A stretch of DNA of 64,000 nt from contig OZ251219.1 in NCBI GenBank assembly GCA_965240465.1, positions 1,408,001-1,472,000 on the forward strand. Direction: 5' to 3'. How positions within the stretch are numbered: position 1 is the first letter of the stretch; every line of letters begins with the position of its first letter. Shown here piece after piece: positions 1 to 12,866 of this stretch. Below the pieces are notes generated by a model. It had not been told where the DNA came from, did not search any database, and saw only the letters and a program-made list of their open reading frames with translations. The position numbers were made by a program, and so were the translations under genes. This DNA comes from a bacterium (GTDB taxonomy: Bacteria > SAR324 > JACQKK01).

Positions 1-1
1 A

Positions 2-3000
2 AAACAGGCCGATACTTTCTCGCTTAATTTTGATTCTTCGGTCTTCATCAATAAAAAAGCGATAGAATACATTGTACAGGAATATAATAATAAGAAAGGA
101 AAGAAAGGTACACTCGCTTCGATTCGGGAGAGGATCTTAAATATTGAAGAGTTGAGAGGCAACTTGCCTGATTTATTCCAAAAGATACTCAACGAAATTA
201 CAGATTATTTTGAGTTGGCTTCTAATATCGATTTATCTGGTGCTGAAAAACAGATTTCCAAAAGTTTTTTGATCCATGCTTCCAATGCGATTCACATTTG
301 CATCTTCGATAAATCCGATGAATCCCTCGTGAATGATTATGAGGAAATGCTTACATTACTTGATTCTGAGGATAGTTCTCTCGCAGCTATATTTAATAAA
401 ATAATTACGAATTTTATTAAGGAACGACTCCAACGATGTAAGAATGACATCGATAAAGAGTGGGACGTTCTTCCTGTTAGTGACAAGCTGGTAGCTAGTA
501 GCCCTATCCCACTCAACAGCGAACAACGGCAAATACTAAATGCTTTAAATAAAGACAGCTGTAATTATATAGCTGTAGAAGGACCTCCTGGAACAGGAAA
601 GAGCCATACAATCACTGCACTTGTATTCGATTATATTCTCAAGAATAAGTCCGTGCTAGTACTTTCTGATAAAAAAGAAGCTCTCGATGTTGTCGAAGAT
701 AAAATCACACATACACTCAACAGTGTTCGTCTACACAAGCAATTTCAGAACCCAATTCTAAGATTGGGTAAATCAGGAAACACATATAATCAAATACTCT
801 CAACCACTTCCATCAATAATATTCGTAACCATCATAAAGCGTTCAAAAAACATTATGATGAACTAATTCCTAATATCAAATCCAATAGATCCTATCTCAT
901 TAGACAAATCGAAGAGACGATTGAAATTTATAAGTCGATTAATCCTGACGACTTACTCGAATATACTCAACTGGAGAAGGAACAGGATAACGATAATCGA
1001 TGGCCTATTGATGCTGGGGAGATTGCCTCTCGTGCTGATGGGCTTCAGGATTTGATGCAACTAAGCGAGAACTGCCTTAGCCTTAGTGAGTTATTTGATA
1101 ACGAGAGTGTAAGTGAATTCCTAACACTTCTCAGAAAATACAAAATAGATCCTGAAACGAGAGAGCCCATAATAATATTTCTTAAGCTCATCAAGTCGAT
1201 GAGAGAAATAATACAAAGTAAGGAGCAGGAGATCGCAGTTCTGCCCCTGTTTAGAGCGATGAATCAAAATGTCTATTCTGGACTGCAGGACTTCATCAAG
1301 AAAGCGGACGAAATAAAATCTAGCTTCTGGTGGTCTCTCTTCAAAAGGGGCCAGGTAAAGCAAGTTACGTCATCATTTTATGACCAGTTTCATACTACTG
1401 GCATTGAGAGCCCTTTATTATCACTGGATAAAATAAAAGAGTTTTGCAGAGTTACTGAAAACATTGTTGCTTCTATGGAAGGCAATATAGATTTTGAGGC
1501 CATAGGACTAGACAAATACGAAGCGAGTCATCAGTTGCTCAGCGACGATCATGCAGCCATCAATACAGTTGAAATTGAGAAAATAGAGGCATTCATTTCA
1601 TTCATTGACAAATATGTTCAAGAATACCCGAAGACGTCGAAGCTGCTCACTATAACAAGTGCTGACATATCTACCTATCATAATAATCCTCTTACAACTA
1701 TTGACAGCAAAGAATTCGATATTCTGAAAAGATTCATTAAATGGAAGAATTTCTTCAACCGCTCTTTTAACAGCCTTCCTGACTTTAACTATGTAGAAGC
1801 TAAATCAGCCCTGGAAAAATTATATACTTCGCAAATGACACATATTCTGGATGGGAGAGTCTTAAAATTTGAGGAAGAGAATCGGTCCACAGCGAGGACA
1901 CTGAAGGGGAATATCAGGAAAAAGAAAAGATTTCCGCGAGAGGAATTCAGCAAACTAAAAGAGGCATTCCCCTGCATAATAGCTGGCATCAGAGATTTTG
2001 CGGATTATATTCCACTTGAGGATAACCTCTTTGATCTTGTTATTATTGATGAGGCCTCTCAGGTTAGTATAGCTCAAGCTTTTCCTGCACTATTACGCGC
2101 AAAGAAGGCTGTCATCCTGGGTGACAAAAAACAGTTTAGCAACGTAAAATCAATGCAGGCACGCTCCGACACAAACGCGAAATATCTGAATCTGCTTAAT
2201 AAAAGCTTTAAAGCCAATGTCTCTGTTAATATTTCTGAATTGGAGAGACTAACAAATTTTAATATAAAAACCTCAGTCCTCGAATTTTTTGGGTTCATAA
2301 GCAATTTCGACATCATGCTATTAAAGCATTTTCGAGGGTATCGTGAACACATTTCATATTCTAGCAAGCATTTCTACGGTGGCCAGTTACAAGCAATACG
2401 ACTACGAATACACCCTATAAATGAAGTCATCAAGTTTACAAACATTGATCATGACGGATTGAAGGAAGTAACAGAAAATACAAACTCTCCTGAAACAGAA
2501 TTTATTATTACTGAACTTAATAAGCTCAAGGAGAACGATACTCAATCATCCGTAGGCATTATAACCCCCCATACCAACCAGCAGAAGTTGATATCTGCTG
2601 AAATCTCTAAATTGCCAGATCGTGACTATTTCTATGATGAATTAAATCTCAAGATTATGACATTTGATACCTGCCAGGGAGAGGAAAGAGATATTATCTT
2701 TTACTCAATGGTAGCTACGGGGGACTCCGATAGATTGTGGGGTGTGTTCATAAAGGATCTCAGCACCATCGACCTCGAAGAAAACGGTACGATAAAAACG
2801 CAACGATTAAACGTCGGTTTTAGCAGAGCAAAGGAATGTATGCACTTCGTTATCAGCAAGCCTATAGAAGAATTTACTGGTTCCATAGGTGATGCACTGA
2901 GGCATTACAATGCTATTTTAGAAAAAACCAAGACTCTACCCACCGAATCGGATGTTGATCCAAAATCTCCTATGGAGACAAGGGTTTTAGAGTGGTTAAA

Positions 3001-3451
3001 AAACTGCCCATTTTATCAAGAACACTTTGAGGCAATCGAGATCAAAGCGCAGTTTCCTATCGGAGTATATCTGAAGCAACTTGACCAGGATTATGAGCAT
3101 CCGTCATATGAGCATCCGTCATATGTAATAGATTTTATGTTTTTGTTTCGTGATCCTACCGATAGTAAGGATTACAAGATTATAATCGAGTACGATGGAC
3201 TAAGGAATCATTTAGATAATTATGAGAATATCAATGAATTTAACTATGAGCACTTTTATACCAAAGAGCACGTTGAAAGACAAATGGTGTTAGAGAGCTA
3301 CGGATATCAGTTTATTCGTTTAAATCGATTCAACACGGGTAGTGACCCAATAAAATCTTTGAATGACAAAATACTGAACATTGTAAAAAAAAAGACTTTA
3401 AAACCGAGACCACATTTACAGAGAAACTCCTTGATACCGTCAGCGATCTAA
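2..3451 (+). CDS. Upf1/DNA2-like SF1 helicase with C-terminal Vsr/DUF559-like PD-(D/E)XK nuclease domain; 5'-truncated by the window edge
   Basis: The frame is open from nt 2 (KQADTFSLNF...), so it starts before the ORF-track TTG at 152. SF1 motifs: GPPGTGKS, IIDEASQ, LGDKKQF, HFR, GIITPH, TFDTCQGEE, RLNVGFSRAK. C-terminal SPME...QFPIG...YVIDF...IIEYDG is Vsr-like. Confidence 0.9.
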   Translation, partial: KQADTFSLNFDSSVFINKKAIEYIVQEYNNKKGKKGTLASIRERILNIEELRGNLPDLFQKILNEITDYFELASNIDLSGAEKQISKSFLIHASNAIHICIFDKSDESLVNDYEEMLTLLDSEDSSLAAIFNKIITNFIKERLQRCKNDIDKEWDVLPVSDKLVASSPIPLNSEQRQILNALNKDSCNYIAVEGPPGTGKSHTITALVFDYILKNKSVLVLSDKKEALDVVEDKITHTLNSVRLHKQFQNPILRLGKSGNTYNQILSTTSINNIRNHHKAFKKHYDELIPNIKSNRSYLIRQIEETIEIYKSINPDDLLEYTQLEKEQDNDNRWPIDAGEIASRADGLQDLMQLSENCLSLSELFDNESVSEFLTLLRKYKIDPETREPIIIFLKLIKSMREIIQSKEQEIAVLPLFRAMNQNVYSGLQDFIKKADEIKSSFWWSLFKRGQVKQVTSSFYDQFHTTGIESPLLSLDKIKEFCRVTENIVASMEGNIDFEAIGLDKYEASHQLLSDDHAAINTVEIEKIEAFISFIDKYVQEYPKTSKLLTITSADISTYHNNPLTTIDSKEFDILKRFIKWKNFFNRSFNSLPDFNYVEAKSALEKLYTSQMTHILDGRVLKFEEENRSTARTLKGNIRKKKRFPREEFSKLKEAFPCIIAGIRDFADYIPLEDNLFDLVIIDEASQVSIAQAFPALLRAKKAVILGDKKQFSNVKSMQARSDTNAKYLNLLNKSFKANVSVNISELERLTNFNIKTSVLEFFGFISNFDIMLLKHFRGYREHISYSSKHFYGGQLQAIRLRIHPINEVIKFTNIDHDGLKEVTENTNSPETEFIITELNKLKENDTQSSVGIITPHTNQQKLISAEISKLPDRDYFYDELNLKIMTFDTCQGEERDIIFYSMVATGDSDRLWGVFIKDLSTIDLEENGTIKTQRLNVGFSRAKECMHFVISKPIEEFTGSIGDALRHYNAILEKTKTLPTESDVDPKSPMETRVLEWLKNCPFYQEHFEAIEIKAQFPIGVYLKQLDQDYEHPSYEHPSYVIDFMFLFRDPTDSKDYKIIIEYDGLRNHLDNYENINEFNYEHFYTKEHVERQMVLESYGYQFIRLNRFNTGSDPIKSLNDKILNIVKKKTLKPRPHLQRNSLIPSAI
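3092..3125 (+). repeat. In-frame 15-bp tandem duplication inside the nuclease domain
   Basis: TATGAGCATCCGTCA x2 followed by TATG, encoding YEHPS-YEHPS-Y. Confidence 0.95.
3385..3394 (+). other. Slippery run A9G (GTA AAA AAA AAG); candidate -1 frameshift or transcriptional slippage site
   Basis: A_AAA_AAG heptamer (3388-3394) is correctly phased in the helicase frame. It lies inside the short overlap (3367-3451) with the open -1 frame. Confidence 0.6.
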
Positions 3452-3747
3452 ATTCTGGAAAACTCAAGACTTGTCCAAAGTGCAATCAACTTAGACTAAT
3501 TTCTGATTTTAAAGATGCAACGTTAATTTCAGGAGAAGGTCGTTTTTGTAAATCCTGTAAGCGAGGAATTGCGAAACCTAATCGAGGAAAGACAAATAAG
3601 GCGGAAAGAAGTGCTAGTGACTCTTTTCAATGCCCAAAATGCTCAGCAAGAATGGTATTGTGTTCAGGAAAATATGGTAAGTTTTATGGATGTTCAACGT
3701 ATCCACGTTGTCGTGGTACTAGACACTACTTTCATAGCTTCCACTAG
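3391..3747 (+). CDS. -1-frame C-terminal extension of the helicase-nuclease: CxxC...CxxC zinc finger plus topoisomerase-type C4 zinc ribbon
   Basis: Manual translation: KDFKTETTFTEKLLDTVSDLNSGKLKTCPKCNQLRLISDFKDATLISGEGRFCKSCKRG...FQCPKCSARMVLCSGKYGKFYGCSTYPRCRGTRHYFHSFH*. There is no ATG in this frame until 3652, inside the second ribbon. Confidence 0.8.
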   Translation, partial: KDFKTETTFTEKLLDTVSDLNSGKLKTCPKCNQLRLISDFKDATLISGEGRFCKSCKRGIAKPNRGKTNKAERSASDSFQCPKCSARMVLCSGKYGKFYGCSTYPRCRGTRHYFHSFH

Positions 3748-3798
3748 ACTTTTAAATTTTGCAGCTTCTTCATGAGTCATCTTAATTGCGCAATGAGG

Positions 3799-3887
3799 GC
3801 CGAGCCAGTATTTCTGCCATTGCCAAACCGAGCTAGTCTTGCCGAGCTAGTCATTGCCGAGCTGGTCATTGCCGAGCTCGTTGTTGC
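3799..3887. repeat. Array of short imperfect direct repeats, consensus GCCGAGCTRGTCATT
   Basis: Four tandem 14-15-bp units at 3828-3887 (ccgagctagtcttg, ccgagctagtcattg, ccgagctggtcattg, ccgagctcgttgttg) plus a detached copy gccgagccagtatt at 3799. Confidence 0.85.
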
Positions 3888-3909
3888 TATCTTTGCCCCT
3901 GCTTAAAAT

Positions 3910-5403
3910 ATGCCTCCCTATAAAAAAACATTGCTGCGTTTGGATTGCGTACATAAGCGATTTGGTTCTACCCATGCCTTGCGTGGAATTAATTTGGAGC
4001 TAATTGAAGGGGAGATATTGATATTGATGGGAGTTAATGGTGCGGGAAAATCAATGTTGGCTAAATTGGTGGGCGGTATTTATGAGCTTGATGATGGTGC
4101 GATGTATTTGGATGGCAAGTTGTACCAACCTAGTAGTCCTCATGATGCCTTACGGGCAGGGGTGGTTACTGTGCATCAGCATGTGAAGGATGGGTTGATT
4201 GCGGACATGACTGTCGCTGAGAATTTGTCTTTTGACCGTTGGTGCTTGGGTGATGAAGGTTGGTTTTTTACTGCTGGAAGGGTATGTAGTATGGCAAAAG
4301 AGGTAGCTACACACTTAAATCTGCAGTTAGACTGGGAACAACAGGTGCGGGAGCTATCACTAGCTGACAGACAATTGGTGGCAATAGCTAGGGCATTATC
4401 TCAGCAGCCGCGATTATTGATATTGGATGAGCCAACCGCGTCGTTATCTCAGACCGAGACCGAGCGTTTATTTGGGTTGTTGAATAAATTACGTAAATCT
4501 GGATGCACGATATTATATATTTCGCATCAATTATCAGACATTGAGAAACTGGCTGATCGAGTGGCAGTACTCAAAGATGGTTGTCTGGCAAAGATATTTG
4601 AGGTTCCTGTAGATCGTACTAAGGTGGTAGAGAGCATGCTGGGATACACCATCAATGATAGTCGTCAAGCGGCGACCGCAAGTAATGAGGTGGTGCTGGA
4701 GGTGCGAGACCTACAATTAAGATCTAGTTCGCGTCCGATGAATTTTGCAGTTCATCGTGGTGAGGTGATAGCTGCAACAGGTTTGCTGGGTAGTGGCAAG
4801 ACTGAGTTTGCCGAATGTTTATTTGGAGAACGGCAGCCTTATCGGGGTAGTTTTTTGCTGAAAGGACAGCCGTACCAAGTGCGTTCTGCTAGGCAAGCAA
4901 TCAATCGGGGAGTGTTTATGCTCCCTGAGGATAGAGAGCAGGCTTTAGTAGCTGATTTTTGTCTGTTTGAAAACTTGGTGCTACCATTTACGGCTATATT
5001 CAGCCGTTGGGGTTGGCTACAAAAGGTTAAGGAGCGTGCTCTGGCTAAGCAGCAAATTTTGTATTTGAAGATCGTTTGTGCATCGGAGAGAGACCCCATT
5101 GAATGCTTATCTGGGGGCAATCAGCAGAAGATAGTGTTGGCACGCTGGCTATGCCAGCCTAGTCAGCTATTGGTGTTGGATGAACCTTTTTCTGGTATAG
5201 ACCTTGGCTCACGAAGGGATATTGCTGATAGGCTACGCTCTACTGCTAATGAACGGGCGACTTTGGTCCTTTGTTCAGACCCCGATGAGGCAGTAGAAAT
5301 AGCAGACCGCATCTTGGTGTTCCACGAGGGAAATCTCAATGGAGAACACAGCATCGCCCAGCTTGACCGTCAACAAATGCTCCAACAAATGCTTTGTGCT
5401 TGA
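3910..5403 (+). CDS. Monosaccharide (CUT2) ABC transporter ATP-binding protein, RbsA/MglA family
   Basis: Two ABC domains: GVNGAGKS, LILDEPT, ISH; second half LSGGNQQK, LDEP. Confidence 0.93.
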   Translation: MPPYKKTLLRLDCVHKRFGSTHALRGINLELIEGEILILMGVNGAGKSMLAKLVGGIYELDDGAMYLDGKLYQPSSPHDALRAGVVTVHQHVKDGLIADMTVAENLSFDRWCLGDEGWFFTAGRVCSMAKEVATHLNLQLDWEQQVRELSLADRQLVAIARALSQQPRLLILDEPTASLSQTETERLFGLLNKLRKSGCTILYISHQLSDIEKLADRVAVLKDGCLAKIFEVPVDRTKVVESMLGYTINDSRQAATASNEVVLEVRDLQLRSSSRPMNFAVHRGEVIAATGLLGSGKTEFAECLFGERQPYRGSFLLKGQPYQVRSARQAINRGVFMLPEDREQALVADFCLFENLVLPFTAIFSRWGWLQKVKERALAKQQILYLKIVCASERDPIECLSGGNQQKIVLARWLCQPSQLLVLDEPFSGIDLGSRRDIADRLRSTANERATLVLCSDPDEAVEIADRILVFHEGNLNGEHSIAQLDRQQMLQQMLCA

Positions 5404-5440
5404 TATCTAAGCATTATTTTACGGCTGTATCTAATCTACT

Positions 5441-6448
5441 ATGATCCCCTTATCCACCAAAAAATGGGTAGCAACTTGGCCAGCAATGGCTATTCGGCAC
5501 GGCTTGATCATTTTTACGCTGCTTATATTTATTTTCTTTTCTTTAGCTGATCCAGATTTCTTTAGTACTCGCAACATTTTCATTATCCTGCAGTCGCTTT
5601 CCATTGTAGCCATATTGGCACTGGGCGTAACTGTCAGTATGGCTGCTGGAGGTTTTGATATATCCATCGGGGCAGTGGCAGCTTCTTCTATGATAGCCTC
5701 CAGCTACGCCATGGTAGTCTGGGAGGCTGGGGCAGGAGTGGCTATTCTGTTGTCTCTTTGTATAGGGTTACTAGTAGGATTATGTAATGGATTTCTAGTA
5801 GTTAAAATGCGAGTGCCAGATTTATTGGCTACTTTGGGCATGCTATTTCTGGTGCAGGGACTACAGCGAATTCCAACTGCTGGGCATTCTATTGCTACGG
5901 GTTTTTTTCTACCCAGTGGGGAAATTGCTTCAGGTGTGTTTTCGCCAGTCTTCCTGCTGCTGGGCAGGCACCGCTTCTTTGATATAATCCCCGTTCCCGT
6001 AGTGATAATGGCATTGCTAGCCCTATTTAGCTGGGTGTTCCTGGAATTCACCAAATGGGGACGCATATTTTACGCCATTGGCAGCAATGAATATGCCAGC
6101 CGATTAGCAGGTGCACCCGTAGCAAAGTACAAAATAGTCTCCTATATGATATCAGGGGCTTATGCTTCTATTGGCGGAATCTTGCTGGCAGCTAGACTGG
6201 GGCGTGGCGATGTCGGTTCAGGAAATTCACTCTTATTAGATGCAATCTCTGCAACTTTAGTGGGCTTTGCAGTACTGGGAAAAGGAAAACCCAACGCCTT
6301 TGGTACCATTGTGGGTGCCATCTTAGTAGGCATGCTAATCAATGGATTGACCATGCTCAACGTACCCTATTACACTCAGGATTTCATCAAAGGTGTAGTA
6401 CTGGTGCTGGCTTTATCTTTCACCTTTGGGCTGAACAAAGCTCGTTAG
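5441..6448 (+). CDS. Monosaccharide ABC transporter permease, RbsC family
   Basis: Multi-TM protein with GGFDISIG and TKWGRIFYAIGSNEYASRLAG; follows the ATPase. Confidence 0.92.
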   Translation: MIPLSTKKWVATWPAMAIRHGLIIFTLLIFIFFSLADPDFFSTRNIFIILQSLSIVAILALGVTVSMAAGGFDISIGAVAASSMIASSYAMVVWEAGAGVAILLSLCIGLLVGLCNGFLVVKMRVPDLLATLGMLFLVQGLQRIPTAGHSIATGFFLPSGEIASGVFSPVFLLLGRHRFFDIIPVPVVIMALLALFSWVFLEFTKWGRIFYAIGSNEYASRLAGAPVAKYKIVSYMISGAYASIGGILLAARLGRGDVGSGNSLLLDAISATLVGFAVLGKGKPNAFGTIVGAILVGMLINGLTMLNVPYYTQDFIKGVVLVLALSFTFGLNKAR

Positions 6449-6711
6449 TATAAAGATAAGTATGTGGGGGGTTGGTGGTGGGGGTTGGTGGTGATTGCTT
6501 GGACTGGACTGGTTTCATAAAAGACTTGGCAAAGGAGTACAGGTTTGGGTAGACTAGGATTGTTTTCATCGTGGACGAGAATTTTTATTTAGGATGTAGA
6601 GATGAGTTGGGGAGTTGTATTTTTTGGCATTCTAGCGATGTTAGGCAGTGCGATATTGGCGTTTCTGCTGAGTACACGGAATTAGATGCGGAGTCAGATA
6701 AGGATAGCAGC

Positions 6712-6861
6712 ATGTTTGAATTATTTGGATTGTTGTTTAAGTTATTTATTTACACTTGGATTGGCATCATTGCTGTGATCCCGCAGATTATCATGGGCGG
6801 TTTGTTTTTGTGCTTGGGAGCAACTTTGTTGACATACCTTCCTAAGAATAAACAGCCTTAG
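6712..6861 (+). CDS. Small hydrophobic membrane protein (49 aa)
   Basis: ATG at 6712 after an AAGGA RBS; MFELFGLLFKLFIYTWIGIIAVIPQIIMGGLFLCLGATLLTYLPKNKQP. The upstream part of the 6571 ORF looks non-coding. Confidence 0.55.
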   Translation: MFELFGLLFKLFIYTWIGIIAVIPQIIMGGLFLCLGATLLTYLPKNKQP

Positions 6862-6877
6862 GAGCATGTTTTAACCG

Positions 6878-8452
6878 ATGGCGATTTCTGACAACAAGAA
6901 GAAAGTGGCTAATTCTACTGGTTCCCGTGAGAATTTAATCAGGCGGAGATGGCTGATGGAATTGTGGTTTAGATTGCAGAGCTGGGGGCATTGGATATTA
7001 GTGGTCTTGGTGGTTCTGGGAACAACCTTACTAGTACAATTGGGGCCTGGATTATGGTCAAGGCTTGGGGGCTTAGAAGAAGAAGTAGTAGTAAAGATTC
7101 AGTTAACGCGACAGTTATCAGATTGGCATTCACCTTGGCAGAAGAATTCTCCTGGAGATGCTAGAGGGTCTGGTTTTGTGATCGGAAAAGGACAAGTTTT
7201 AACAAATGCCCACGTAGTGAGTGATGCCCGTCAGGTGCTGGTGTACGACTATCATACGGGCGTTCCCACCTTGGCAGAGGTGGAATATATAGCTCATGAC
7301 AGCGATTTAGCCTTGTTGAAGGTCAGTGATGAGTCATTTGCAAAAGGGGTTAGTCCACTGCCTTTTGGAGGATTGCCTATCTTAAGAAGCAGGGTACGTA
7401 CCTATGGTTTTCCAGCTGGAGGCACGAGAATTTCTCGCACAGAAGGGATAGTATCACGAGTACAATTTTGGAATTATGTTCATTCTGGGGCTGATGCCCA
7501 CATCGCAGTACAAACTGATTCAGCGGTGAACCCTGGCAATAGCGGAGGACCGGTAGTGCAAAATGGTAAAGTGGTGGGAGTGGCATTTCAAAGCAACCGA
7601 GAGCTGAATGATGTAGGATACTTCATCCCCACTACCGTGATTAAACGCTTCCTAAAAGACATAAAAGACGGCCAATACGACGGCTATACTGAATTGGGAG
7701 CCATAACTTCCACCCTGCACAATAAATTCAAACGTGCCTTCCTAGGACTGAAAGAGCAACAAACAGGAGTAGTAGTGAATAATGTTCTGCCTGGATCATC
7801 AGGAGAAGGCTATCTACAAACCGGCGATGTAATATTGGAGGTTGAAGGAGCAACCGTAGATAATGAAGGCACTATCGCCTATGAAAAGCATCGGGTTGCT
7901 TTTGAACAGAAGGCGGAAGAAAAGCTCAACGGTGAAGAGATGAACATGCTCGTCTTGCGAGAAGGGCAACTGTTGAAGCTATCTATCCCGATGAAATCTT
8001 GGTCACGGGCACCTTTCCAACGGCGCCGTTATGAAAATGCTCCTCGCTATCTGATATTTGCAGGGCTGGTCTTTATGCCTTTAGAAAGAGAACTATTTCA
8101 TACCTCTGCGATCACCGATGAACCTCACTTGCTATATGCTCACAGCTATCAACCGCTGGAAGATCCTTCGGCTTTTCCTCCTGATCAGCCCCTTATTGTC
8201 CTGACTAGAATCCTTCCTCATGCTATCAATACTGCCTACAGTCAGTACGAAAAATATATAATTAGCAGAATAAATGGACAGCCCGTACGTACTCTAAAAG
8301 ATATTGCCACAGCTCTGGATACCTCTGGCGACAAACTTGAATTGACCCTCAATCCAGGTAGTATTCTGGTGGTATTCAATCGTGATGAAGCCGATAAAGC
8401 CCACTTAGAAATGCTTAAAACCTATAACATTAACCAAGACCGCCGTCTGTAG
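6878..8452 (+). CDS. HtrA/Deg serine protease, Deg2/Deg9-like, with two PDZ-type domains and an N-terminal TM segment
   Basis: Intact triad: LTNAHVV (His), HDSDLALL (Asp), NPGNSGGP (Ser). PRYLIFAGLVFMPL marks the second PDZ-like domain. Confidence 0.93.
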   Translation: MAISDNKKKVANSTGSRENLIRRRWLMELWFRLQSWGHWILVVLVVLGTTLLVQLGPGLWSRLGGLEEEVVVKIQLTRQLSDWHSPWQKNSPGDARGSGFVIGKGQVLTNAHVVSDARQVLVYDYHTGVPTLAEVEYIAHDSDLALLKVSDESFAKGVSPLPFGGLPILRSRVRTYGFPAGGTRISRTEGIVSRVQFWNYVHSGADAHIAVQTDSAVNPGNSGGPVVQNGKVVGVAFQSNRELNDVGYFIPTTVIKRFLKDIKDGQYDGYTELGAITSTLHNKFKRAFLGLKEQQTGVVVNNVLPGSSGEGYLQTGDVILEVEGATVDNEGTIAYEKHRVAFEQKAEEKLNGEEMNMLVLREGQLLKLSIPMKSWSRAPFQRRRYENAPRYLIFAGLVFMPLERELFHTSAITDEPHLLYAHSYQPLEDPSAFPPDQPLIVLTRILPHAINTAYSQYEKYIISRINGQPVRTLKDIATALDTSGDKLELTLNPGSILVVFNRDEADKAHLEMLKTYNINQDRRL

Positions 8453-8456
8453 CTAT

Positions 8457-9989
8457 ATGTCCCTTAAACCTTGCCAAACTAATTGCTTCTTTAAGGCAAT
8501 AGCAGAACCACGCAAAACTGGCAATATTTACATAGCATGGCTGGTTGTGTTCCTACTGTTGCCTACGGGTACGGTGCGGGCAGAAAAAGCGATCTCTAGT
8601 TCTATGGTCGGCGTCACGGTGAGTGCTAATAGCTGGAAAGCTAAGCTTCCCTGGCTGGCACACCGAGAAATTTCCCGTAGTGGCAGCGCGGTGGTGGTCG
8701 CCGGGCAAAAACTTTTAACCACAGCTAATCTGGTATCCAATGCCAAAGTGATTCAAATCCGCAAGAATGGAAAGCCACAGAATTACAATGCAATCGTAGC
8801 AAGAATAGATTACGCCGCCAATTTGGCTTTGCTAAGCGTCAATGAAAAGGCTTTTTGGCATGGATTAGAACCGCTATCTATTTCGCAACTGCCCACAGGA
8901 CTTCTAAACTTCAACATTAACCGCTGGCAAGACGGTCGTTTTGAGCAAGGTAGTGCCGAAGTTATTAGATATAGCCAGCATACTTCATTTTATGATTTGC
9001 TACTGGAAACACCTGCTCTCTGGGCAAGTACCAGTTTACAGAAAGTCCTCAATGGGGAGGCTGCCATCTACAACAATCAATTGGTAGGGCTGGCTGCTTA
9101 TAAAAATAAGAACGAAGTACGTCTGATACCCAGTAGCTTGCTGGCATCCTTTGTGGAATCCTTTGCGGCATCCACACTAGCCCGAGGGTCCATATTCATC
9201 CACCGCGGTTTTGATTGGCAAGCCCTTAATCATCCTCACCTGCAGGAACACTTCTCTATCCCCAAAAACGGACATGGAGTACGCGTAAATGAAATTTTCG
9301 CCGAAGGATTTGGCTCTCAAGAATTGCAAAAAAATGACATTCTGCTTGATATAATCGGTTTTGCTATAGATTCTGAAGGGGGTATTAAACACCCTCGTTA
9401 TGGGATAATTCCCTTTACTGTAGTGTTGAATATCACCTCCAGTCCCAGCATTCCTATCAAGCTGATGCGCAATAAACAATTGCTGACGGTTAATGTCAAG
9501 CGAGAGAAAATCTCCTATACGGGTGTTAACATCCATCCTCCCCTGCGTGATGTCCAACCGCAATATGTTGTTTTCGGGGGGCTCATTCTACAGGAGCTCA
9601 GGTTAGATTACCTGCAAAGTTGGGGGGCAAACTGGAAACAAATAGCACCAAAAAGACTAACCTTAGAATACTTACTTAACTCAAGAAGACGCCTTAATCA
9701 AAAAGCATCCCGCGTGGTCATTGTTTCTGAAGTACTATCAGACCCCATTAATTTAGACTACAAAAATGCGGAAGATGTCATCATCCAGTCTGTCAATGGG
9801 CTGGAAGTCAATTCTCTAAAAGATCTTCAACAAGCACTGAAGGTCCCCAAAAACCAACATCACATTTTCAGCCCTATGCCCGGTAAAAATATCGGATTGC
9901 TAGTCTTTCCCGCGGCTGAAATGGAGCAAGCCAACCAGCGTATCGCCAAAAAATACCAGATTCCTGTTGGAACACTGCCACAGCTATAA
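8457..9989 (+). CDS. Deg-like pseudoprotease with PDZ domains (catalytic triad lost)
   Basis: Collinear with the upstream paralog (SGSAVVV, QYVVFGGLILQEL), but LTTANLV, YAANLALL and KVLNGEAA replace the His, Asp and Ser motifs. Confidence 0.85.
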   Translation: MSLKPCQTNCFFKAIAEPRKTGNIYIAWLVVFLLLPTGTVRAEKAISSSMVGVTVSANSWKAKLPWLAHREISRSGSAVVVAGQKLLTTANLVSNAKVIQIRKNGKPQNYNAIVARIDYAANLALLSVNEKAFWHGLEPLSISQLPTGLLNFNINRWQDGRFEQGSAEVIRYSQHTSFYDLLLETPALWASTSLQKVLNGEAAIYNNQLVGLAAYKNKNEVRLIPSSLLASFVESFAASTLARGSIFIHRGFDWQALNHPHLQEHFSIPKNGHGVRVNEIFAEGFGSQELQKNDILLDIIGFAIDSEGGIKHPRYGIIPFTVVLNITSSPSIPIKLMRNKQLLTVNVKREKISYTGVNIHPPLRDVQPQYVVFGGLILQELRLDYLQSWGANWKQIAPKRLTLEYLLNSRRRLNQKASRVVIVSEVLSDPINLDYKNAEDVIIQSVNGLEVNSLKDLQQALKVPKNQHHIFSPMPGKNIGLLVFPAAEMEQANQRIAKKYQIPVGTLPQL

Positions 9990-10012
9990 AGGCACCGTAA
10001 AAGCACCGAAGG

Positions 10013-11308
10013 TTATCGCTCAGTCTTAGTATGGCTAAGAGAAGCACCTGCCGTTTTTTTGAGTACTTCTATTTCAATGGCGATAATCCGCTGGGGGTCG
10101 CGTTCTGTAACTCGGAATAGGTGATTGTTATACTGGTGCTCCCAGCTAAGCGGGGGCAGATGACCTGCTTGCTCAATAATAAACCCACCTAGGCTTTCAT
10201 AGCTGCGTTCTTCGGGAAACTCTAGTCCTAGTTTGTTTTCTAGGTCGCTGATGCTAATACGAGCATCGGCACGCAGGGTGTGATCCCCTATGGGTAGTAG
10301 TTTTAGATCTTCTTGATCTTGTTCATCTTGGATTTCACCCATTAGCTCTTCTAAAATGTCCTCCATGGTGATAAATCCACTGGTGCCTCCAAATTCATCT
10401 ACCACGATAATCATATGAGAGCGTTCTTTTTGCATAATGCGAAACACTTTTGGAATAAGCATTGATTCTGGTACAAACAAAGGCTTGAGAAGTTGTCGGG
10501 CGAGGTAGCTATTTTTTTCAGCCGGATCATCTTTCAATAAGTCTTTGGTATAGAAGATGCCTTGGATGTTGTCGCTATTATTGCTAAATACAGGAATGCG
10601 ACTATAACCACTTTCTTTGGCAATCGTGATAAGTTCTTCGCGGGAGGTTTTCACCGAAACGGATAGCATTTCTGTACGTGGCCGCATAACTTCACGGGTG
10701 GATGTGTCATGGAATTTGAGTACCGCAACCAGTAGGCGTTCTTGTTCAGCCTCCAGTGTGCCTTGTCTACCAGCCATCAGCAGCATATAGTTTAGCTCTT
10801 CCAAAGTTACTACTTGGTTATGATTCAACTGATTCCTGCCCAGCAAAGACATCAGCTTATTAACGACTATGCTTATAAGTCTGGTGAGGGGGTATACTGC
10901 CGCATGGAATACCACGACGATATTCATCGCCAGAGGGGCTAATTGAGGAGCATAAACTCTAGCAAAAGCTTTAGGGGTAATCTCACTACTAAACAGCAAT
11001 AGCAAGGTCATACCGCCAATTACGGCGGCAATGGCATTAGACTGTAGCAGACGGTTGGCTAAGTCGGTAGCTAGCACGCTAGCAGTGATATTAAATAAAT
11101 TGTTGCCAATTAGAATGCTAGTCAGCATATCTCCAGGGTTTTTCTGCCAGATAGACAAACTCTTTGCCCATCTCGGATATTTCTTTTGCAACTGCTCCAG
11201 TTTAGCCAGCGACAATGAGGTTAAAGCAGTCTCTGAACCAGAGAACACCCCAGACATCAGCAGGCACAGCAGAATGCCTGTTAACTCCCATGTTGTGTCC
11301 ACAAACAC
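10013..11308 (-). CDS. Hemolysin-family/CNNM protein (DUF21 + 2 CBS + CorC_HlyC)
   Basis: FSGSETAL, SEITPK, GYSRIPV, VVDEFGGTSGFITMEDILEELMGEI. Confidence 0.95.
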   Translation of the reverse strand: MFVDTTWELTGILLCLLMSGVFSGSETALTSLSLAKLEQLQKKYPRWAKSLSIWQKNPGDMLTSILIGNNLFNITASVLATDLANRLLQSNAIAAVIGGMTLLLLFSSEITPKAFARVYAPQLAPLAMNIVVVFHAAVYPLTRLISIVVNKLMSLLGRNQLNHNQVVTLEELNYMLLMAGRQGTLEAEQERLLVAVLKFHDTSTREVMRPRTEMLSVSVKTSREELITIAKESGYSRIPVFSNNSDNIQGIFYTKDLLKDDPAEKNSYLARQLLKPLFVPESMLIPKVFRIMQKERSHMIIVVDEFGGTSGFITMEDILEELMGEIQDEQDQEDLKLLPIGDHTLRADARISISDLENKLGLEFPEERSYESLGGFIIEQAGHLPPLSWEHQYNNHLFRVTERDPQRIIAIEIEVLKKTAGASLSHTKTER

Positions 11309-11699
11309 TCCATTTGAAGGTGACGATTAATTTTTTGGCATTTGTAGCTATTCAGCCTGCCTACACAGGTAATTAATTCCCTGTTGATTAGCACCGTGGT
11401 CGTTATTGTGTCTAAGGCAAACGCATGCCTAAAACCAGATAATAGGTATGCAAACATGCCACAGGCACAATAACGACCACAACCACGACTAGGAGGCTGA
11501 TCTTCTTGATACATATAATCACGCTGAAAAATTATCCATACAGATATGCCTGTACTCCAAGAGTACTTACACATCCACAGGAAGCTATTCTCCCACAAAG
11601 TTAACAAAAAGTGCAAGTTTTTTCAATTTTTTGCAAAAAAATCAGTAACAGGTTTTTTTAGAGGAAGATATAACATAGGTGCTTATCATTTACGGCTTC

Positions 11700-12866
11700 C
11701 TAGAAAAAATCTCCATAAAAATTTAGCAACCAGCTGAGCAGAATTACTTGAGGCAGGGAGATCAGGGGTAGTAGCAAGGAAATTCTCCAGTTCTTAGTGA
11801 CTTCTTTAATGCCCATTATTTCGGTGGCATCAGTGGCTACCCCAGCCATCATAAAAGCAAACGCATTGCCTGGTGCACCAGCACGATTTGCTAAATCGGC
11901 AGCTAAAGGTACCGAACCTTCTGAGCAAACCTCAATTATAGTCGCTGCCAGCAAGGTAATGGATAATCCCAATAACGAAGGTCCCAGCCAAGCAGTGAAT
12001 TGTTCGGGTGTCAGGAATGTACGCACCGCTGCCGAAATAACTACTCCTAACAGCAACCAGCGGATAATCATGCGTGATCCTAGCAGGCTGTCGCGGATGA
12101 ATTTCAGTAACATTAGGGGGCCCCAACGAATCTTGGATATTTTAGCTAAGTAACGGCGAAGTTCTTGTTTTAATGAAAATTGAGAATCAGAATAAGAGTA
12201 GGGATTGGCAGGTATAAATCCTGCTGTTTCAACCAAATCAATCAGCAACCCTGTGATGATGGCTATCAAAAAAGAGCCGAAGAAGAAAACCAGCGTGAGA
12301 GGCCAGCCCACCAAGCTGATGAGGATGATTGTCAAACTGAGTGAATTCCAAGGGCTGGCAACCAAGAAAGCAACCATTTGGGCAGCAGAGGCACCACGTT
12401 CATAAAAACGCAGGCCGATTAATAGTACTCCGTGGCTACAAACATCAAATAGCAACCCCGCGGTAGCAGCCCTCAAAATGCCGTTAAAACTGCCCCGAGA
12501 ACCCAAAGCTGCCATAACCAGCTCCCTAGGCAGAGCTCCAACTAAGCCAAAGGCTAGAATACCTAGCGTCAAGCCCCATAGCATGGTGTTCAAAATGCTG
12601 TAGATATCATGTACAAAGCTACCAATGGTGCTACCTTCCAGCATTCCATGAAATCCCCAGTGCGACAGATAAGCTACCAAGCATCCCAAAAAGCTAAGGA
12701 TAAACAGCCAGTCTTTGGACTTGAACCAAGCACTCAATGAAAAAACCTTAGCCCGCTCAGACGAATCAGGACAAGCAACACAGCTACTCTTAATCGCAAC
12801 TCCAAGCGATACTGTCTTTGCCTCGGCAGAAGCTGTATCTGAGGAAAACCAATTCATAATGCTCAC
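11700..12866 (-). CDS. Permease of the ArsP/UPF0718 family
   Basis: Duplicated multi-TM halves with DVCSHG and EVCSEG motifs; FLVASPW. Confidence 0.75.
   Translation of the reverse strand: MSIMNWFSSDTASAEAKTVSLGVAIKSSCVACPDSSERAKVFSLSAWFKSKDWLFILSFLGCLVAYLSHWGFHGMLEGSTIGSFVHDIYSILNTMLWGLTLGILAFGLVGALPRELVMAALGSRGSFNGILRAATAGLLFDVCSHGVLLIGLRFYERGASAAQMVAFLVASPWNSLSLTIILISLVGWPLTLVFFFGSFLIAIITGLLIDLVETAGFIPANPYSYSDSQFSLKQELRRYLAKISKIRWGPLMLLKFIRDSLLGSRMIIRWLLLGVVISAAVRTFLTPEQFTAWLGPSLLGLSITLLAATIIEVCSEGSVPLAADLANRAGAPGNAFAFMMAGVATDATEIMGIKEVTKNWRISLLLPLISLPQVILLSWLLNFYGDFF

Follow-up and report, generated by a model that had tools for sequence, protein, structure and literature searches.

A candidate slippery poly-A tract between a helicase-nuclease and its out-of-frame double zinc-ribbon tail in a SAR324 bacterium

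Why does a large helicase gene end in a short, unconserved tail while a conserved pair of zinc ribbons lies immediately downstream in the -1 frame, and could one gene give rise to proteins with and without these ribbons? This question is raised by a locus of a SAR324 bacterium, situated at the 5' edge of the window, i.e., the whole stretch of 64,000 nucleotides that was analysed (contig OZ251219.1 of assembly GCA_965240465.1, positions 1,408,001 to 1,472,000). The helicase ORF crosses that edge, as the gene starts 830 bases 5' of the window (G000:C1:1407171; the full gene is L001:671-4951), and ORF analysis shows that it encodes an SF1 (Upf1-like) protein of 1426 aa with a TAA stop at 3449-3451. 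An earlier note on this DNA had proposed that slippage at an A9G site gives access to a hidden zinc-ribbon tail, and inspection of the sequence showed its coordinates for the end of the helicase ORF (3451), the A9G site and the bounding TGA and TAG codons to be right. The relevant features are the following:

1..3451, + strand: frame-0 ORF, SF1 (Upf1-like) helicase with a putative Vsr/MTES_1575-like nuclease domain (from the ORF and Pfam)
3385..3393, + strand: A9 homopolymer, the proposed slip site, read in frame 0 as the last base of Val and then Lys-Lys-Lys
3388..3394, + strand: heptamer A_AAA_AAG, which lies in the frame-0 phase and may serve as a motif for -1 ribosomal shifting
3395..3451, + strand: frame-0 tail TLKPRPHLQRNSLIPSAI and TAA stop, out-of-frame and not conserved by relatives
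3394..3747, + strand: -1-frame tail of 117 codons (DFKTETT...HSFH) and TAG stop
3472..3558, + strand: first C4 zinc ribbon (CPKC...CKSC), -1 frame, with C30, C33, C55 and C58 of the tail
3631..3711, + strand: second C4 zinc ribbon, topoisomerase-I type (PF01396), -1 frame, with C83, C86, C103 and C109 invariant

At the site, the helicase frame reads GTA AAA AAA AAG, with the G at 3394 ending the A9 run, and the run, placed 94% along the gene, would toggle only a tail. The -1 frame opens after the TGA at 3364-3366 and comprises 126 codons (3367-3747) up to the TAG at 3745-3747. Its first ATG, GTG or TTG is an ATG inside the second ribbon, which confirms the earlier observation that no ATG precedes this ribbon and extends it to GTG and TTG. 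In frame 0, homology to the in-frame relative P0025 stops at ...VKKKT (residue 1409); in the -1 frame it restarts at KKK and reaches the end of the protein (E 1e-33), the spacing from KKK to the first cysteine being equal in the two and the linker as long as in in-frame relatives. The homology switch thus falls exactly at KKK.

The helicase core is recognized by both of its Pfam halves, AAA_11 (68.2 bits) and AAA_12 (71.2 bits), each against a cut-off of 27 bits, and its N-terminal 440 residues have no Pfam match. The nuclease domain is putative, since its score against PF18741 (MTES_1575; 20.1 bits, E 6.8e-4) is below the cut-off of 38.2 bits, and a PDB sequence search with it gave no match; some relatives carry PF18741 or the source name 'very-short-patch-repair endonuclease'. 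Translation of the -1 frame confirmed the CPKC...CKSC motif and the topoisomerase-type C4 ribbon described earlier, the latter matching PF01396 (Zn_ribbon_Top1) with 41.9 bits (cut-off 32 bits, E 8.7e-11). The AF2 model has a pLDDT of ~90 over the first ribbon block, and the best matches in a fold search with the tail were the E. coli TopoI ribbons, weak at E 0.02, with nothing at E <= 0.001. An alignment of 76 tails, including 8 shifted ones, shows no variation at any of the eight cysteines. We infer that the tail binds single-stranded DNA or serves as a sensor. In some relatives the tail consists of a zinc ribbon and WYL.

The proposed comparative test was whether distant homologs keep an A-run and the same -1 offset at the junction, and this is true for a subset of them. 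Among 145 distinct loci examined as DNA, 134 have the tail in frame, and 132 of these carry at most A7 in the linker, the two exceptions being L120, with A9 at the junction site, and L135, with A8 elsewhere. The ten loci with a shifted tail all have A8-A10 at the same junction, nine of them in the -1 and one in the +1 frame, and in all nine loci with a -1 tail the sequence A AAA AAA/G is in phase with the upstream frame. The tract-bearing loci with available DNA number eleven (one in frame, nine in -1, one in +1), which is fewer in frame than an expectation of 1/3 would give, without reaching significance (p = 0.075). The 9:1 bias toward -1 has p = 0.02. A bias of this kind could also come from the deletion bias of replication. 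A frame-0 stop follows 2-19 codons past the run in nine frameshifted loci, the window included. The earlier note had named as an adverse outcome that all homologs would be in-frame fusions with no conserved A-run; this description fits most homologs and fails for the window's own clade (L001,(L034,(L063,L080))), in which all four sampled members are frameshifted and which is well recovered both by IQ-TREE (SH-aLRT 95, 42 rows) and by FastTree (SH-like 94, 142 rows). Elsewhere in the tree, frameshifted and in-frame forms interleave, and the starred branches require at least 3-4 changes. The shifted layout is both recurrent and conserved.

Selection acts on the run itself. Synonymous differences between the frameshifted loci are saturated (pS 0.67-0.96 in the tails and 0.82-1.05 in the core), dS being saturated in nearly all pairs, so that dN/dS is not computable; 7 of the 9 shifted tails still score above the Pfam cut-off for PF01396, and one further tail does so for WYL. 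The GC-rich member L080 (GC3 0.81) uses AAA 9 times and AAG 55 times (14% AAA), yet it retains GAA AAA AAA (A8), for which the probability under its codon usage is ~0.005, and the nucleotide identity between L063 and L080 is at its maximum, 0.93, in the comparison interval holding the run. Synonymous saturation with the eight cysteines kept, together with A8 kept in a GC-rich genome, argues for a selected tract.

At the protein level, 187 clusters were compared. Those with a K-run at the junction comprise 28 short and 8 long forms and those without it 2 short, 146 long and 3 other forms (Fisher's test, 28:8 vs 2:149, p = 7e-24), a tally that is biased because the second query chosen was a short form and that includes ~26 short-form relatives known from protein sequence only. 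In the P0077 group, in-frame KKK forms are 79-82% identical to short forms. Full-length members of eight 90% clusters of the short form number 26; every one is short, and 24 have the same 34-residue end, a count that is weak as clustering at 90% may part long forms by construction. P0201, from a Rickettsia endosymbiont, differs from its 6 full-length cluster mates in the frame used at its end, and this end, as read from the protein alone, fits a run one A shorter.

Taken with the anatomy of the locus, these comparisons suggest that selection has probably maintained the A9 run as a slippery tract where the nuclease meets the zinc ribbons, through which one gene gives a short and a long isoform, as the earlier note had envisaged on the basis of the A9G site; the run and the -1 offset kept in a subset of homologs support that proposal. 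Standard decoding would produce the 1426-aa protein without the tail, and after a slip by one base some of the product would instead be read in the -1 frame, as a protein of ~1525 aa that carries the two zinc ribbons. Such a slip could take place when RNA polymerase adds an extra A to the mRNA on the A9/T9 stretch or when the ribosome shifts by -1 on A_AAA_AAG, and both routes would give the identical junction ...NIVKKKDFKTE.... Slippage by RNA polymerase, a -1 ribosomal shift, or both are the most likely means. What we infer for this organism comprises slippage itself, the machine responsible and the ratio of the two forms.

The earlier note had seen neither a clear upstream SD nor a downstream hairpin, and this was borne out: folding of the RNA of 10 loci revealed no stable or conserved structure flanking the run (z -1.9 to +0.8), no SD-like or hairpin stimulator was found at the run, and an Rfam search returned no frameshift element. 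A strongly stimulated -1 ribosomal shift is thus unsupported, and stimulatory elements are not needed for transcriptional slippage on long runs. Expression of the tail as an independent unit was considered and rejected. In the window and in 6 of the 9 frameshifted loci, no start codon (ATG, GTG or TTG in the window) lies ahead of the first ribbon, and neither promoter-like nor terminator-like sites were found in 3300-3950, so the tail cannot be made separately.

A different, rather unlikely reading is that the gene is a phase-variable contingency locus, in which DNA replication alters the length of the run, the switch between tail-less and tailed states is heritable and the tail is preserved by selection on cells in the tailed phase. 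Phase-variable tracts usually lie early in the gene and work as an on/off switch, whereas here the tract is near the 3' end, affects the tail only and is dominated by the shifted state. The likeness to the tracts of R-M and surface genes lies in a homopolymer within a defence-like gene class and in relatives with differing frame states, and homopolymers this long slip for DNA polymerase too (PMC3711429, in the part covered). Both states do occur among tract-bearing relatives (8 long vs 28 short clusters) and the tree forces the state changes given above, but each of the four members sampled from the window's clade is in the -1 state, and the eleven tract-bearing loci are divided 1, 9 and 1 among the frames. 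Likewise, the deviating end of P0201 favours a switch, against which the uniformly short 90% clusters count, weakly for the reason already given. Tandem repeats and long runs of G/C, reaching 18 bases, are unusually abundant in the genome, as would suit contingency loci, but A8 tracts mutate slowly in GC-rich hosts, and independent Logan contigs of two runs (depth 104 and 73) contain only the same A9 with no indel listed, bearing in mind that both runs represent one sample, possibly the source of the assembly, and that contigs drop rare variants. The search for sequencing runs that contain the locus listed these two and no RNA run.

It is quite improbable that a plain mutation has removed the tail, leaving a truncated helicase, working or not, and a -1 ORF that is an untranslated remnant. 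The slippage-prone genome speaks for such an event, and both a relative without a tail (L018) and one broken at several places (L131) exist; however, the members of a deep clade share the layout, every zinc ligand and the Pfam scores are kept although their synonymous sites are saturated, the run is retained against codon bias, and short forms exceed long ones among tract-bearing clusters, unlike what is expected of a decaying state that keeps intact tails. A sequencing or assembly error, with A10 as the true run, is very improbable, for although homopolymers are the usual site of such errors, the A9 is free of indels in the Logan contigs of both runs and assemblies in many separate records, from metagenome contigs and MAGs to complete genomes, show the layout with A8-A10. 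A recent indel or a sequencing error, both of which the earlier note had kept in play, is accordingly disfavoured by the contigs, by the layout in diverged relatives and by the retention of the run against codon bias.

Frameshifting at homopolymers throughout the genome occurs in some endosymbionts. As an account of this genome it was rejected, since the split geometry is present at only 3 of 367 homopolymers of at least 8 bases, and the other two sites are ordinary complete gene pairs, OtsA/CutA1 and CdaA/YbbR. The genome tolerates 229 A/T runs of at least 8 bases, many of them within intact genes, and the A9 by itself is therefore not special here.

Slippery sequences of this type have been described in several systems. 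In E. coli dnaX, the shift leads to the shorter product and is assisted by an SD-like sequence before the site and a hairpin after it, whereas here it would lead to the longer product and no stimulator was found, the two families being unrelated. In IS elements, a stimulatory structure is usual and enzyme activity resides in the fused product; the IS3 and IS1 transposases use the same heptamers (A_AAA_AAG, A_AAA_AAA/C) to join a downstream -1 ORF to an upstream one but, unlike there, the upstream ORF here already has helicase and nuclease domains. A_AAA_AAG is the -1 shift motif of dnaX, with transposases also named, and A9 reporter cassettes give ~40% frameshifting in E. coli (PMC3711429, in the part covered). 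The tau and gamma products of dnaX (by -1 ribosomal frameshifting in E. coli, by transcriptional slippage in Thermus thermophilus and in two-ORF dnaX genes with A7-A10 runs) resemble the present case in the same slippery sequence and in two products with a common N-terminus, and dnaX runs vary from A7 to A10 among relatives, as run length varies here (PMC3711429). The tssM1 gene of Citrobacter rodentium and tssM of Yersinia pseudotuberculosis have a stop just past a poly-A run and a C-terminal domain out of frame; slippage of RNA polymerase adds A's and gives truncated and full-length proteins, both of which, and their ratio, are required (PMC4256274, in the part covered). The tssM1 run has 11 A's, is experimentally proven and belongs to a membrane component of a secretion system, whereas the present candidate site is an A9 in a cytoplasmic helicase-nuclease.

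The SF1 helicase core is also common to the anti-phage proteins Hhe, ProA and Mokosh MkoA/MkoC, and in Hhe a Vsr-like nuclease follows the helicase, as the putative one does here. The HMMs of Hhe, ProA and Mokosh match only partially, at residues ~870-1240, and PADLOC hits are equally partial. The whole-protein scores for Hhe and ProA are far under the curated NCBIfam cut-offs, with matches confined to the helicase core (Hhe, NF042953, 101.9 vs 2000; ProA, NF058533, 139.2 vs 1500). A defence island was rejected for this genome, in which the neighbours encode a class I tRNA synthetase, RNB, LepA, an ABC transporter and HtrA-like proteases. The helicase-nuclease was probably acquired horizontally. 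A DNA search of 40 relative genomes gave no match except one chance-like 28-base hit, and a protein-level search of 87 other genomes of the phylum gave none; viral contigs contributed 4 loci, of which 2 have the motif, both in frame without a run, and on plasmids the best identity was 35%.

The literature searched describes no frameshift for the Hhe, ProA or Mokosh families and, among the matches listed, no poly-A zinc-ribbon tail in such a helicase. The words 'helicase' and 'zinc' are absent from the main text of Antonov 2013. The opening 300,000 characters of the Atkins 2016 review never mention 'zinc ribbon' and name hrpA as their sole helicase. The slippage trick itself is known from dnaX and tssM; in the literature searched, it has not been described before in this helicase gene family.

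By analogy with tssM, it may tentatively be suggested that the poly-A joint is a built-in dosing device that sets a fixed tailed minority against a tail-less majority in a widely transferred and probably defence-related helicase-nuclease family; the layout would then have evolved repeatedly and independently at this one domain joint, since function would depend on how much tailed protein is made relative to tail-less protein and not merely on having a tail. Current annotation records such genes as a complete 'AAA domain-containing protein' of ~1415-1426 aa and overlooks the tail, and databases therefore lack an entire domain for dozens of proteins. A tract of A8-A10 at a constant joint, a shift that is mostly -1 and retention of the tract despite GC-rich codon usage together provide a search template for further sites. 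If slippage at this joint is true, recoding would extend beyond its usual classes (dnaX, IS elements, phage tail chaperones and tssM), its host gene would encode a large helicase-nuclease from a class with anti-phage members, and a conserved ratio of tailed to tail-less protein would offer a handle on the role of the zinc-ribbon or WYL module.

The A9 run lies near the 3' end of a gene for an SF1 Upf1-like helicase, both halves of whose core are recognized by Pfam (AAA_11, 68.2 bits; AAA_12, 71.2 bits). The last 185 residues of this open reading frame match the restriction-endonuclease-like MTES_1575 at 20.1 bits, which is below the cut-off of 38.2, and a putative nuclease label for the C-terminal part is plausible. 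The elements at the junction between helicase and tail are as follows:

Enters the window from the left, TAA at 3449-3451, forward strand: helicase ORF, 1426 codons with the upstream DNA included (671-4951 of L001, the window's own locus with that DNA).
3385-3393, forward strand: A9 run, read GTA AAA AAA AAG, 19 codons ahead of the frame-0 stop.
TGA at 3364-3366, then open to TAG at 3745-3747, forward strand: -1 frame, encoding two C4 zinc ribbons.

The second ribbon is assigned to Zn_ribbon_Top1 by Pfam (41.9 bits against a cut-off of 32). No ATG, GTG or TTG occurs in the -1 frame ahead of an ATG lying within this second ribbon, and no promoter-like or terminator-like site was found at 3300-3950. 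The run, stops, frames, ribbons and start codons had all been described correctly in an earlier note, as re-examination confirmed. In a comparison with the in-frame relative P0025 (1516 aa), the match of the frame-0 protein begins at residue 11 and stops at ...VKKKT (residue 1409). That of the -1 frame starts at KKK and continues to the final residues (E 1e-33), with KKK 26 residues away from the first cysteine, as in P0025. The homology thus switches frame at KKK, so that a one-base shift inside the run would restore the standard architecture, in a protein of about 1525 aa.

The source genome is a single contig (C1) of 1.6 Mb with a GC content of 45%, the window being positions 1408001-1472000 of it, and the helicase gene is a solitary, horizontally acquired gene within it. 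Its GC content is 35-39% (window 1-3800) against 44-47% in the flanking genes (3800-12000), housekeeping genes flank it on both sides, and a search of 87 further genomes from the phylum gave no relative of it. The gene resembles a single-gene horizontal insertion, with a class I tRNA synthetase gene on one side and an ABC transporter operon on the other; the spacer between the tail stop and the ABC transporter gene carries a 15-base tandem repeat (3828-3878, 3.5 copies, 94% matches).

A protein search returned 1663 relatives. Among the best 120 of these, most are 1490-1590 aa long with the Top1-type ribbon in frame, and about 10 are proteins of 1404-1433 aa, most of which stop a few residues past KKK. 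The DNA of 160 loci was collected from metagenome and genome collections, giving 145 distinct loci including the window. The tail is in frame in 134 of them, 132 of which have linker A-runs of at most 7 bases; the two exceptions are L120, which has A9 then G at exactly the same site, and L135, with an A8 elsewhere. A single locus, L018, is without any tail. In the remaining ten the tail is out of frame, and every one of these carries A8-A10 at the helicase/tail junction:

-1 frame (nine loci): the window, A9; L034, L141, L142, L149 and L151, A10; L063 and L080, A8; L131, A10.
+1 frame (one locus): L163, A10.

The earlier note had set against its own reading the possibility that all homologs are in frame and lack an A-run, which is true of 132 of the 145 loci and false for the ten shifted ones; as for distant homologs, a subset does keep A8-A10 at the junction, nine loci, the window included, having the -1 offset. 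Of nine shifted tails run against Pfam, that of the window among them, seven pass the PF01396 cut-off; L163 falls below it and L151 has a WYL domain instead. When 76 tails (8 shifted, 68 in frame) are aligned, all eight cysteines are invariant. One variant of the family (P0029, P0090, P0094, P0109, P0111, P0186) has a WYL domain following its first ribbon in place of the Top1-type one, and in L151:7731-8450 this variant stands in the -1 frame behind an A10 run. At L142:7209-7691 the shifted tail has a third C4 ribbon between the usual two, a copy of the first ribbon module duplicated within the tail. The copy in the Rickettsia endosymbiont of Polydrusus tereticollis (L131:8693-9350) keeps its A10 run, and its tail begins in the -1 frame but is cut past the first zinc knuckle and resumes some 330 bases on in another frame; the helicase is split too, and this copy is degraded, perhaps with an inserted element.

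In trees built on the C-terminal 450 residues of the helicase (FastTree, 142 rows; IQ-TREE, 42 rows), the window forms a clade with L034, L063 and L080, all four frameshifted, with a support of 94 in FastTree and an SH-aLRT of 95 in IQ-TREE; protein path lengths within it exceed one change per site. The nearest database protein, P0004 (54% identity overall), is a short form ending just past KKK. In L080, where GC3 is 0.81 and AAA occurs 9 times and AAG 55 times, the junction still reads GAA AAA AAA (chance from codon usage about 0.005), and the nucleotide identity of L063 and L080 peaks, at 0.93, in the 30-base window containing the run. By sequence comparison, the A-run looks to be under selection. 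Two protein searches, the second centred on a short form and the tally biased in that respect, provided 187 clusters, of which 28 short and 8 long ones have a K-run at the junction and 2 short, 146 long and 3 other ones have none (Fisher p = 7e-24). The best-supported reading, and probably the correct one, is that of the earlier note, namely one gene giving two isoforms via slippage at the A-run.

Phase variation, in which the length of the run would be switched at the DNA level, is a serious rival, although we consider it rather unlikely. What speaks against a strictly fixed programmed site is that the state is patchy beyond the window clade: at least 3-4 changes are forced by well-supported branches, in-frame KKK forms of the P0077 group are 79-82% identical to short ones, and in a Rickettsia endosymbiont cluster six full-length members share one end frame and P0201 has another, as would result if its run were shorter by one A. 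The run length thus does change in the DNA on an evolutionary time scale, which is what A9-A10 would lead one to expect. In eight short-form clusters, the 26 full-length members are short without exception, 24 of them with the same 34-residue end, which would speak against rapid switching but carries little weight, as clustering at 90% identity may by construction separate long forms from short. The source genome holds 229 A/T runs of at least 8 bases, many within intact long ORFs, so that an A9 is not unusual there. Only three of its 367 homopolymers of at least 8 bases, however, have an ORF ending just past the run with another frame open for at least 90 codons; the two besides the window's were rejected as frameshifts, since each separates two normal neighbouring genes, OtsA followed by CutA1 in one case and CdaA followed by a YbbR-domain protein in the other:

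Contig C1 of the source genome G000, 1390213-1390220: A8 run, gene ending with another frame continuing.
Same contig, 593996-594003: A8 run, gene ending with another frame continuing.

Long G/C homopolymers are far above expectation for a genome of 45% GC (48 G runs of at least 9 bases, up to 18; 35 C runs of at least 9 bases, up to 15) and look like candidate phase-variable tracts.

That the shift is a plain inactivating mutation is improbable. Synonymous sites are saturated among all frameshifted loci (pS 0.67-0.96 in the tails, 0.82-1.05 in the core), yet 115-160 codons stay open and every zinc ligand is kept, which argues against an untranslated remnant of such age. An error in the sequenced run length is hardly credible, since the A9 that the earlier note wanted distinguished from A10 is reproduced without indel in Logan contigs of two runs (depth 104 and 73), both of one sample that is possibly the assembly's own. 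A minority of A10 cells would be compatible with these A9-only contigs, because contigs mask rare variants. Their sole gap, of 15 letters near 3107, falls at a perfect 15-base tandem duplication (window 3092-3125, 2.3 copies) within the putative nuclease domain, where the peptide YEHPS is doubled and P0025 has a 5-residue gap; the copy number may vary.

If one gene gives two isoforms, a one-base slip in the run by either candidate route would yield the same protein, ...NIVKKKDFKTE.... Stable or shared RNA structure flanking the run was found in none of the ten loci (folding z -1.9 to +0.8), and Rfam has no match around the run, so there is no sign of stimulators like those that make the E. coli dnaX and IS3 frameshifts efficient. 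RNA polymerase slips on long A-runs without stimulators. In the +1 locus, L163, rescue would be possible by RNA polymerase dropping an A and impossible by a -1 ribosomal shift. Together these points would rank transcriptional slippage first, ahead of the ribosomal route, of which a contribution on A_AAA_AAG is possible.

In E. coli reporter cassettes, A11, A9 and A7 gave 63, 40 and 10% frameshifting (PMC3711429). The closest known cases are dnaX and, closer still, tssM of Citrobacter rodentium, where a poly-A run precedes a premature stop, RNA polymerase adds A's, and truncated and full-length proteins are both made and both needed (PMC4256274). The predicted site belongs to a known kind of recoding and has good comparative evidence behind it. 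No published account of a slippage site in such a helicase-nuclease was found in a literature search that took in PMC3711429 with one of its two supplementary files. Likeness to the Hhe, ProA and Mokosh helicases is limited to the core of the window protein, with scores far under the curated cut-offs, and membership in these families was rejected.

The Top1-type ribbons of topoisomerase I bind single-stranded DNA. The AF2 model of the tail (mean pLDDT 75.9) has two confident ribbon blocks with a disordered linker between them, and a fold search with it gave weak matches only, the best being to the E. coli TopoI ribbons (E 0.02). The replacement of the second ribbon by a WYL domain in some relatives suggests that the tail may be a sensor or targeting module.
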